From contig JAGWDQ010000109.1 of the NCBI GenBank assembly GCA_018260615.1, positions 1-29,653 on the forward strand: a stretch of 29,653 nt of DNA, in the 5' to 3' direction. Positions 21,896 through 25,624 of the stretch are shown here, in pieces. A program made the translations under genes and the position numbers. The notes beneath the pieces were generated by a model. It made no database searches. It saw nothing but the letters and a program-made list of their open reading frames with translations, and was not told the DNA's origin. Every line of letters starts with the position of its first letter. Within the stretch, counting starts at the first letter, position 1. Source of the stretch: Candidatus Altarchaeum sp. Lineage in GTDB: Archaea > Altiarchaeota > Altiarchaeia > Altiarchaeales > Altiarchaeaceae.

Positions 21896-23413
21896 TTAAA
21901 GCTTTAATTTATTTTTAATTTCTTCATGTCTGCTGTGAAGTGTTGAAATCGTAATTCCTACCAAATACAATAGTTCTTTCTTTGGAAATTCCTCCCCGAT
22001 CTGTTCACATGCCAAACTTATAATTGCTCCCGCAACCCCCGAAGGACCTCTACCTGCAGTAATTCCATATTTCTTTGCTTCATTAAGTATTTTCTGAGCT
22101 TCTTCTTCGGCGGTATTTGAAATCCCAATTTTTGAAGCATAGAGAGCAATATAATCTTCTACATTTGTTCTTGGTGGTTTCAGATTCATGGACTTAAGTA
22201 TATGTTTATAACTTCTGCCGATTTCTTTTTTTGATATTCCGCTTTTTTCTCCGATTTCTTCTAATGTTCTCGGTTCTCCCTTCTTTCTGGTCACATAACA
22301 TATTATTGCACCAATTATACTTTCTATACTTCTTCCTTTAACAAAGCCCTTATCTACCGCCTGTCTGTATAAGTGAGCACAGTCCTCCTTTATTGTTTCT
22401 CCGATGTCTAACAAACTGCACATTCTGTCAAGTTCCGGAAGAGCTATTGATAAATTTCTACCAACGCTGTCGCTCATTCTGCTCCTTGTTTGTAGTCGTC
22501 TCATCCTATACAGTTCAACTTTTCTTTCCACTTCAAATCCGCCACCTTTTGCATCTCTGTCGTAGCGGTCTATTTCCGTTGTTAAACCCTTGCTGACCTT
22601 TGCATCTTTTATTGCACCGCTTGCCCTTGATCTTTTTTCTTTTTGTCCGCTGTCAAATGAACGCCATTCCGCACCTGTATCTATCATCTCGGAGTCAATA
22701 ATCGTTCCGCAATTTGAGCACACAATCTCGCCTGTCTTAACATCAGGAAAAGCACTTTCATAAAATATTTGTATATTGTTGTTCGCTTTTTCGGTAAAGC
22801 CAACCGAAAAAATTTTTTCCTCTTCTAAATTCGGAGAATTTTTAAGTGTAAAAACACATTTTAAATAAATTAGAAGGATTGCTCTGTTTTCCTTTTTAAC
22901 AAGTATTTCGCTTCCTTCATTGCTTATTTCCGGCTCTTTCAGGTCCTTCAGCAAAGTCACTTTATCAATAATATTTTTATCTAAATTTTTCTTGGAATCT
23001 AAAATTTCCCATAACATTGTTTGCTTCTCTTTATCCTGTGAAAATTCTTCAAGTGTAAATAGATATTCGTCTTTATCATATATTTTTGTTTTGCTGTTTT
23101 CAAATCGCACTTCTCCCAGAGGATAAATAAATGCATCTCCTCCGCTTTGACAGCCGTATCTTTTATCTATCTTTATATCACTTTTTAAAGTTAAATTTCC
23201 AATTATCCCGTTTTTTCCCTTAATTTCAATCGTTCCATCCTCATAGACATATTTTGCCTCTTCTAAATTTGCGCTTAAATTTCCCCTCTTACTTCCCAAG
23301 TCGTTAAGCATACAGGTATTTTTTAAATACCTTTTTATTGCATTTTGCTGTGCTTTTTCCTTATCTATCTGGTCAAATACGAACAATATTCCTTTACATT
23401 CCGGACACCTCAT
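21896..23413 (-). CDS. tfb: Transcription initiation factor IIB with a ~210-aa insertion in the zinc ribbon
   Basis: CPEC...GEIVCSNCG, EWRSFD B-reader, GLTTEID, RNLSIALPEL, KGRSIE, PRTLEEI and GRGPSG cyclin repeats. Confidence 0.93.
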   Translation of the reverse strand: MRCPECKGILFVFDQIDKEKAQQNAIKRYLKNTCMLNDLGSKRGNLSANLEEAKYVYEDGTIEIKGKNGIIGNLTLKSDIKIDKRYGCQSGGDAFIYPLGEVRFENSKTKIYDKDEYLFTLEEFSQDKEKQTMLWEILDSKKNLDKNIIDKVTLLKDLKEPEISNEGSEILVKKENRAILLIYLKCVFTLKNSPNLEEEKIFSVGFTEKANNNIQIFYESAFPDVKTGEIVCSNCGTIIDSEMIDTGAEWRSFDSGQKEKRSRASGAIKDAKVSKGLTTEIDRYDRDAKGGGFEVERKVELYRMRRLQTRSRMSDSVGRNLSIALPELDRMCSLLDIGETIKEDCAHLYRQAVDKGFVKGRSIESIIGAIICYVTRKKGEPRTLEEIGEKSGISKKEIGRSYKHILKSMNLKPPRTNVEDYIALYASKIGISNTAEEEAQKILNEAKKYGITAGRGPSGVAGAIISLACEQIGEEFPKKELLYLVGITISTLHSRHEEIKNKLKL

Positions 23414-23476
23414 TTTCCTTTTAATCTTTTAAATTTCTTTATTTATTTTACTTTTTTGATTAATTGTATAAATTTT

Positions 23477-23528
23477 AAAATGAAATAATAAAATGAAATA
23501 ATAAAATGAAATAATAAAATGAAATAAT
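23477..23528. repeat. 13-bp tandem repeat x4 upstream of tfb
   Basis: aaaatgaaataat repeated perfectly four times. Confidence 0.9.
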
Positions 23529-23676
23529 AAAATAATTTTTTAAAATATTTTAATCTTTAAAAAATAAGTAATTTTTAAAATAAATAATAAAAATAAATAA
23601 TTTAAAAATGAAATATTAATGAAACAATAAATAAAATAAAAAACAACAATTAAAATTTAAATAAATTTAAACATAA

Positions 23677-25010
23677 GGTAGTGATAAAGATGTAATGTTC
23701 GTTTAAATTGTAAAATTATCTCGTTGTTGTCCGGAGATTTTCAAATATATATGTTCTATGGATACTAATTATTAACACTACCTTTGTAAAATGTTAAGAA
23801 CATTCAAATACAGGATATATCCAAACAAGAAACAGCAGGAACTATTAGAAAAACACTTCGGTTGTGTTAGATTTATTTACAACTTTGCTCTTGACAAGAA
23901 AATAAAAGCGTATGAAACATCAAAAACAACACTTACAAGATTTGATTTACAAGTTATCGTCAAAGACATGAAACAAGATAGCAAATATTATTGGTTAAAT
24001 GAAGTAAATTCACAATCATTACAAGCAGTATTAAAACATTTAGACGGTGCTTTCACAAAATTTTTCAGAGAAAAGAAATGTTTTCCAAAATTTAAATCAA
24101 AGAAAAATAATTTCCATTCATTTGAATGTCCACAGCATGTTAAAATAGAAAACAATAAACTCATAATTCCAAAGTTCCTTGAGGGCTTAAGAATAAGATT
24201 AAGCAGAATGTTCACCGGTAAAATCAAGACAACAACAATATCAAAAACACCAACAGGAAAATATTATGCTTCTGTTTTAGTGGAAACAGATGATGTTTTA
24301 CCTTTAAAACCAGAAATAAAAGAAGAAACAACCGTAGGAATTGATTTAGGAATTAAATCATTTGTCACAATAAGTGATGGAACTAAAATAGAGAGTTTAA
24401 AACCTCTCAAAAACTCATTAGACAAATTAAAGGTATTACAAAAAAGGTTAAGCAGAAAGGTTAAAGAAAGCAATAACAGGAAGAAAGCAAGATTAAAAGT
24501 TGCTAAAATTCATGAGAAAATAACAGAGCAAAGAAATGATTATATTAACAAATTAACATGCAGAATGGTACACGACAGCCAAGTGGATACAATCTGTGTG
24601 GAGAATTTAAATGTCCAAGGAATGGTATGTAACCACCATTTAGCACAGGCAATAAGTGATGCAAGCTGGAACGAGTTTAATCAGCAGTTAGAATACAAAT
24701 GCAATTGGTATGGAAAAAATTATGTCAAAATTGGAAGATTTGATGCAAGCAGCAAAATATGTTCTGTGTGCGGAAACATAAACAAAGAACTTACACTTGC
24801 AGACAGAGAATGGACTTGTACCAATTGTAAAACACATCACGACAGAGATACAAATGCAGCAATAAATATGAAGAAATTTGGGTTGCAGAAACAAAATTTA
24901 ATCAATTATTCAGGGCAGGGTATGCCCGTAGGGCTTGGGGAGTTGTTGTCAGTAGACAGAGCCATGAACCAAGAATGATAAGAGGTTTCATTACCTATTT
25001 ATCACTACCA
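23677..25010 (+). mobile_element. 1334-bp non-autonomous TIR element with 8-bp TSD carrying tnpB
   Basis: GGTAGTGATAAA (23677-23688) / TTTATCACTACC (24999-25010), extendable imperfectly to ~21 bp (..GTAATG); AAACATAA at 23669-23676 and 25011-25018. Confidence 0.85.
23791..24978 (+). CDS. tnpB: RNA-guided endonuclease TnpB
   Basis: N-terminal FKYRIYP...FGCVRFIYN, RuvC triad GIDLG (D185), VENL (E271), DRDTNAA (D353) and zinc finger CSVCG...CTNC. Confidence 0.96.
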   Translation: MLRTFKYRIYPNKKQQELLEKHFGCVRFIYNFALDKKIKAYETSKTTLTRFDLQVIVKDMKQDSKYYWLNEVNSQSLQAVLKHLDGAFTKFFREKKCFPKFKSKKNNFHSFECPQHVKIENNKLIIPKFLEGLRIRLSRMFTGKIKTTTISKTPTGKYYASVLVETDDVLPLKPEIKEETTVGIDLGIKSFVTISDGTKIESLKPLKNSLDKLKVLQKRLSRKVKESNNRKKARLKVAKIHEKITEQRNDYINKLTCRMVHDSQVDTICVENLNVQGMVCNHHLAQAISDASWNEFNQQLEYKCNWYGKNYVKIGRFDASSKICSVCGNINKELTLADREWTCTNCKTHHDRDTNAAINMKKFGLQKQNLINYSGQGMPVGLGELLSVDRAMNQE

Positions 25011-25030
25011 AACATAAATAATGGGAACTT
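24880..25030 (+). ncRNA. Putative omegaRNA (scaffold over the tnpB 3' end and right TIR; guide from the flank)
   Basis: GC-richer structured tail gggcagggtatgccc...gaaccaagaa and terminal hairpin tgataagaggt-ttcatt-acctattttatca. Boundaries are inferred from TnpB biology. Confidence 0.5.
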
Positions 25031-25476
25031 TTGAAGATATTTTTATAAAATACGAATTAATTGGCTTACTGCTCGGATGTTTTGCATCATCTTCCATATT
25101 GCCGATTCCATCGGAACCGTTAATAATCATTAGCACAAAATTTCAACCCGTAATTTATGTGTTTGTTTTTGCACTTATCGGCTCTGTAGGCGGTGCAATG
25201 CTAAACTATGCAATCGGAATCAAAGGAATTAAATGGCTCGTAAAGAGGGAGAGTGAAAAAGAAAAGAAATTAGAAATGTGGTTCAGTAAATACGGAATAT
25301 TTGTACTATTGGCAGTTCCATGGATTCCGTTCGTTGGAGACCTGTTTACAATTGTCGCAGGTTCTTTGAAAATGGATTTAAAGAAATTTATATTATGGAT
25401 TACGATTGGCAAGGCAATAAAAATTTCTGTTGTTATTTATGCCGCAATGGCGGGAATAAAATTTTTCGGAATGTGA
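25021..25476 (+). CDS. YqaA/DedA (SNARE-associated, VTT domain) membrane protein
   Basis: SILPIPSEP, GSVGGAMLNYAIG, WF.KYG...LL..PWIPFVGD and GKAIK motifs. Confidence 0.88.
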   Translation: MGTFEDIFIKYELIGLLLGCFASSSILPIPSEPLIIISTKFQPVIYVFVFALIGSVGGAMLNYAIGIKGIKWLVKRESEKEKKLEMWFSKYGIFVLLAVPWIPFVGDLFTIVAGSLKMDLKKFILWITIGKAIKISVVIYAAMAGIKFFGM

Positions 25477-25624
25477 TGCATTTGCCATTTGCATCTTTTT
25501 TCGTCCATCCTTTTTTGCTAATCGTGGCTAAAAAAGGTGGCTGTGATTCCAATTAGCAAGGCAATAAAAATTTCTGTTGTTATTTATGCTGCAATGACAG
25601 GGATGAAATTTTTCGGAATGTGAT
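25409..25624 (+). repeat. 69-bp diverged direct repeat of the yqaA 3' end flanking a hairpin
   Basis: 25409-25477 vs 25556-25624 with 5 mismatches; the spacer contains ccttttttgc-taatcgtg-gctaaaaaagg. Confidence 0.88.

Follow-up and report, generated by a model that had tools for sequence, protein, structure and literature searches.

In a Candidatus Altarchaeum genome, a non-autonomous element with IS1-type ends, which would move in trans, has probably captured an IS605-lineage tnpB gene and reconstituted the omegaRNA 3' end from its own right terminal inverted repeat (TIR). The guide would start at position 25012, and the element-free allele would be the sequence that is cut.

The element, its ends and its insertion site

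The window, that is, the whole stretch of 29,653 nucleotides analysed, holds a 1,333-bp element at 23677-25009, in which an intact IS605-lineage tnpB is enclosed by IS1-family inverted repeats and an 8-bp target-site duplication (TSD). The right TIR (24989-25009, minus strand) is complementary to the left TIR (23677-23697, plus strand) at 19/21 positions, and the left and right copies of the duplication (23669-23676 and 25010-25017, plus strand) are an identical 8-mer. Because the orthologous site of the congener G001 holds one copy of this 8-mer, directly ahead of the orthologous VTT gene, that site is empty and the repeat is a true TSD, which records one DDE-type insertion of the whole unit. 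The six other contigs that encode an identical protein also carry the element at this site; one insertion site is known.

The same TIR family bounds MITEs of 100-150 bp in the host genome and three congeners as well as an 840-bp element in the genome G003, and 37 other genomes of the class gave no match to it. On another contig of the host genome, C42, an element with a 233-aa IS1 transposase ORF (PF03400) ends in this repeat. From the TIRs shared with the MITEs and the transposase element, the carrier is therefore taken to be a non-autonomous IS1-type element, and the duplication has the 8-9 bp length of the IS1 family. The left arm contains a copy of a dispersed host hairpin repeat (23712-23746; BLAST matches in G000-G002) and, by repeat comparison, a degenerate internal TIR (23762-23782, minus strand); judging from this arrangement, 23677-23782 may be a former 106-bp MITE. 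A left-end hairpin of the IS605 type was looked for in the element and not found.

The tnpB gene (23791-24978, plus strand) encodes 395 aa with HTH, OrfB and TNB domains, an intact RuvC triad (D185/E271/D353) and an intact C4 zinc finger, which places the protein in IS200/IS605 (IS1341). It aligns end to end with ISDra2 TnpB and departs at 5/115 near-invariant columns, inside the range of its homologs, with no excess decay. The hallmark of Fanzor and pro-Fanzor proteins is a RuvC-II glutamate that lies about six residues ahead of the zinc finger (PMC13565253); here, the catalytic glutamate stands 53 residues before it (E271 versus C324).

A host gene for a VTT/DedA-domain membrane protein (25021-25476, plus strand) starts 3 bp after the TSD. 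The insertion (23669-25021), lying 3 bp before its start codon, cuts the gene off from the intergenic region common with a divergent TFIIB gene, and the VTT/DedA gene may now be read through from tnpB. The TFIIB gene beside the site identifies the window as archaeal. Several features of this neighbourhood were also recorded. The last 30 codons of the VTT gene are partially duplicated after it (25531-25620), and 25 bp of the VTT gene downstream of the element are deleted in one assembly of the locus (L098:1597-1790). The TFIIB ORF (21896-23413) encodes 505 aa, with about 210 residues ahead of the zinc ribbon, and is much longer than is usual in archaeal TFBs. Upstream of it, a 13-bp AT-rich tandem repeat (23470-23546) differs in copy number among assemblies (fewer in L097) and congeners.

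The omegaRNA scaffold and its terminal hairpin

Four stems and a pseudoknot between the stem-1 loop and the scaffold end, the features of an omegaRNA, were found by prediction and covariation. Stem 1 (24913-24927, plus strand, as are the elements that follow) was placed from homologs and the ISDra2 structure (PMC10097598), and its loop, GGGTA at 24918-24922, forms the 5' strand of the pseudoknot. Stems 2-3 (24934-24975) are laid out as in homologs, with 24934-24938 paired to 24969-24973. Stem 4, the terminal hairpin (24976-25004), abuts GAACCAAGAA (24966-24975) and consists of 11 pairs with one bulge at -8.5 kcal/mol; its 3' arm, 24994-25004, falls within the right TIR. The initial annotation had proposed just this, a TIR built into the terminal omegaRNA hairpin in place of the usual right-end hairpin, and its description of the letters is right except in the 3' arm, which reads acct-atttatca, with three T rather than four. 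The hairpin occupies the site of the homologs' GC-rich right-end hairpin, directly after a conserved GAA.

Such a fold is unlikely by chance, and the hairpin is real. The best fold among 46 other IS1-type ends of the genus was no better than -4.0 (median -0.3), and random 13-mers placed ahead of this TIR reached -8.5 in 19/20,000 trials (about 0.1%). The right-end hairpins of homologs have a median of -12.6, and 7/36 are as weak as or weaker than this one. Its rank below most homologs, together with the similarity of its 5' arm to an inverted copy of TIR bases 6-17, the MITE-like nature of the left arm on its own and the single known insertion site, would fit a non-working relic, in which two IS1 MITE ends enclose tnpB as a passenger and a collapsed MITE has left the hairpin behind. 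We consider this unlikely: the hairpin starts exactly at the conserved position and the catalytic residues are intact, and the pseudoknot and TAM described below speak against it as well.

No relevant Rfam family was matched, and no terminator-like site was seen near the element end. The MAFFT alignment of scaffolds was trimmed to the chosen register and carries no evidential weight. Two other candidate pseudoknot strands, the pairing of 24928-24931 with 25006-25009 in the minimum-energy fold and a GGAG motif, were dropped on ISDra2 numbering.

Pseudoknot covariation and the probable scaffold end

The ISDra2 structure shows the stem-1 loop paired with scaffold positions -6 to -2, with a G.A pair at -2 and position -1 unpaired (PMC10097598). 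Covariation was assessed in 36 fetched homologs having CA at the expected place, with loop and tail located in each. Positions -6 to -4 pair in 106/108 cells, compared with 76 +- 4.5 (s.d.) for shuffled loops, a contrast that overstates significance because the homologs are related. None of them departs from the G:C at -3 or the G.A at -2, and compensatory pairs of several types are present. The sister element L103 (tree support 99/92) combines the same stem 1 with a GGGAC loop and a GTTCA tail; since it differs from the present element on both strands, loop and tail have changed together, which is not expected of a relic. GGGTA loops also occur in the TIR-less relatives L104, L108 and L407, so this loop may predate capture.

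Every candidate end from 25003 to 25015 was scored for pseudoknot, empty-site match and TAM, and only 25011 passes all three. Because GGGTA pairs with TACCA (25006-25010) at 5/5, the most likely scaffold end is 25011, two bases into the TSD, with 25006-25010 as the predicted 3' strand of the pseudoknot and 25011 as the unpaired last base. The hairpin is kept, the empty-site match is full and the TAM would be TTTAA. Hairpin and pseudoknot are separated by a one-base linker, as in 34/72 homologs.

The initial annotation had placed the scaffold end at CACTACC (25009), so that the entire TSD would serve as guide, with AATTT (23664-23668) as TAM. This placement follows the simple rule, familiar from IS605, that scaffold and transposon end together; it matches the empty site perfectly, and TTAT immediately precedes the TSD in a second TIR-bounded tnpB family of this genome. 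However, the pseudoknot then scores 1/5 both here and in a second IS1-ended element, L497, there is no A at -2 of either scaffold or TAM, AATTT lacks the TTA core of the relatives, and TTAN stands at that register in 1/55 IS1-type ends. The boundary of the initial annotation probably falls two bases too early, and an end at 25009 appears very improbable.

Its alternative, a scaffold ending at TATCAC (25005) with a guide starting TACC and no match to the empty allele, is hardly more credible. Here, the terminal TCAC resembles many IS605 elements, and TATCA at 25000-25004 fits the pseudoknot as well (5/5). Nevertheless, this pairing uses the lower five pairs of stem 4, so that the base of the stem melts and the hairpin falls from -8.5 to -3.7; the predicted duplex is +0.4 versus -2.2; four mismatches to the empty site arise without a TTA TAM; and the equivalent position in L497 scores 2/5.

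Predicted TAM and guide, and proposed mechanism

With the scaffold ending at 25011, the register table gives a predicted TAM of TTTAA (23666-23670, plus strand), made of three flank bases and TSD bases 1-2. The predicted guide (25012-25027, plus strand), made of TSD bases 3-8 and flank, matches the reconstructed empty allele beside TTTAA and spans the start codon of the downstream gene. The earlier proposal that the guide would target the element-free allele is thus retained as a prediction, and the G001 empty site offers the TAM with 13 matching guide bases. A TTA core is expected because, in six close homologs whose IS605 left ends are readable, the inferred TAM is TTAT and the stretch that contacts TAM -4 to -2 in ISDra2 is shared. 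TTTAA agrees with this core and equals the measured TAM of the archaeal SisTnpB7 (PMC11043419); its last base is unproven, as the close homologs indicate TTAT rather than TTAA.

Among the 55 IS1-type ends of the genus, with 8-bp TSDs assumed, TTAA stands at the +2 register in 10 (background 2.4%) and TTAN in 12 (background 5.5%). From the latter count, the target preference of the transposase would supply a usable site in about one-fifth of insertions.

The mechanism that we propose begins with an IS1 DDE transposase, which would move the non-autonomous element in trans. On capture of the IS605-lineage tnpB, the 3' arm of stem 4 would have come from the right TIR, as would most of the pseudoknot strand. 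The tnpB transcript would continue through the right end, and TnpB would retain an RNA whose scaffold ends two TSD bases in, these being scaffold positions -2 and -1, with the guide running from the third. As the TSD is present in two copies, these two bases would also serve as TAM -2 and -1 at the empty site; the first would be both the A of the scaffold G.A pair and the A at TAM -2. The element-free allele, having TTTAA and a full match, would be cut. The occupied left junction would be spared, with a TAM but only 6 matching bases, as would the right junction, with a full match but no TAM. Self-cleavage is not predicted, as each junction misses TAM or match and no TTAN site matching 12 guide bases was found in the assembly. 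Repair of the cut empty allele from an occupied copy could then keep or spread the element. IS1 is not known to excise without a scar, so empty alleles would come from sister copies, incoming DNA or inter-TSD recombination.

A second IS1-ended tnpB and related loci

L497, which encodes the protein P0071, is a 1,242-bp element with IS1-type ends, an 8-bp TSD and a GGGTA loop. Only the +2 register reaches 5/5 in its pseudoknot, where the TAM would be ATTAA; at -0.8 kcal/mol, its terminal hairpin is very weak. A TAM at the matching register in two elements is a further point against a relic. The element (L497:1442-2699) is inserted in the last codons of a small upstream gene, and at its left end the start of the TIR occurs as a 9-bp tandem near-duplication.

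In the tree, the TnpB of the present element (P0001) groups with IS605-type elements (99/92), which are its nearest relatives, whereas P0071 falls in another clade. Holding the two together was rejected (p-AU 0.006), for a group named after a tree had been seen; a first quick tree that had placed them side by side was overruled by the better-sampled tree and this test. Two captures, or an exchange of ends, are suggested by this rejection, and L497 apparently represents an IS1-ended tnpB captured independently. In the large clade around P0071 (P0121-P0239, 56-73% identity), the C-terminal tails often carry G-[IST M] where the stem-1 loop lies, as a GGGTA loop would allow. This clade was not reached by protein scans of viral contigs, phages and plasmids, which leaves L497 as the only source of its DNA. 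Pattern scans across viral contigs and the phylum revealed no additional IS1-ended tnpB, although the gap of the first pattern was one base too long for L497, and an automated TIR and TSD search at other homolog loci returned chance AT-rich matches only.

As a tentative generalization, in which we have less than even confidence, IS605-lineage TnpB may have been captured by IS1-type ends on at least two independent occasions, with convergence on a split TSD, its first two bases being the last of both scaffold and TAM and the transposase preference providing the TAM. The P0071 clade may then represent a whole family of active, RNA-guided homing elements carried by IS1-type ends.

Two other groups of loci were noted. 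The second tnpB family, unrelated and multi-copy (about 1,317 bp; G000 contigs C13, C24, C42, C69, C70 and C119, L209-L214; G002 contig C43, L207), has distinct 15-bp TIRs and 7-8 bp TSDs, with its TTAT just before the left copy. Here too, a terminal hairpin takes its 3' arm from the right TIR, whose last five bases could pair with an upstream loop, the same design with a guide start at or near the TSD. The phage-borne relatives L104, L231, L496 and L407 have no IS605 ends; as L231 still has a loop/tail match (GGGCA with TGCCA), their sequences suggest domesticated TnpBs with a fixed guide.

Comparison with known systems

TnpB-DDE coupling is rare in prokaryotes, while Fanzors are coupled to many such transposases; why this is so is an open question, and the pseudoknot constraint has been proposed as a barrier (PMC10711439, PMC13565253). 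The element described here would provide a concrete route past this barrier with the pseudoknot retained, and it yields an exact prediction, a boundary at 25011 and a TAM of TTAN. For TIR-bounded tnpB genes, the guide start should thus be read from the pseudoknot rather than the transposon end, which matters for mining these nucleases as editors. In the open-access literature searched, we found no paper describing tnpB on an IS1 carrier or a TSD divided between scaffold and guide.

DDE-transposase-associated TnpBs comprise the branches DDE-1 to DDE-6 and solo TnpBs with matching ends (Altae-Tran 2023, PMC10691335), and the partners given in a 2026 review are ISL2, IS630 and IS1031 (PMC13565253). 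As in those systems, tnpB lies within inverted terminal repeats, its 3' end is near the transposon end and mobilization would occur in trans. However, the carrier here belongs to the IS1 family, which is not among the named partners (PMC10691335, PMC13565253), and omegaRNA boundary and TAM were left undefined there. Absorption of flank or TSD bases into the scaffold has been shown for the IS607 TnpB ISXfa1 and predicted or seen for Fanzors (Yoon 2023, PMC10711439). Like Fanzor1 and Fanzor2* in cut-and-paste transposons and like ISXfa1, the present element would have TIR and flank/TSD bases in the scaffold and TSD bases in the TAM. Unlike them, it encodes a canonical prokaryotic IS605-lineage TnpB and retains the pseudoknot, and its scaffold would absorb only two of the eight TSD bases, leaving six as guide seed.

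With IS605/IS1341 elements (ISDra2, PMC10097598), it has in common the TnpB fold, catalytic triad, stems 1-4, pseudoknot geometry and a T-rich TAM. It differs in having no HUH left-end hairpin and no TCAC/TCAA end, in possessing TIRs and an 8-bp TSD, both foreign to IS605 ends, and in a scaffold predicted to run past the element end. With IS1-family single-ORF elements and MITEs, it shares TIRs of about 21 bp beginning GGTAGTG, an AT-rich 8-bp TSD and a PF03400 partner in the genome. In contrast to the single-ORF elements, it lacks a transposase, carries tnpB as cargo and has a right TIR that doubles as RNA structure.
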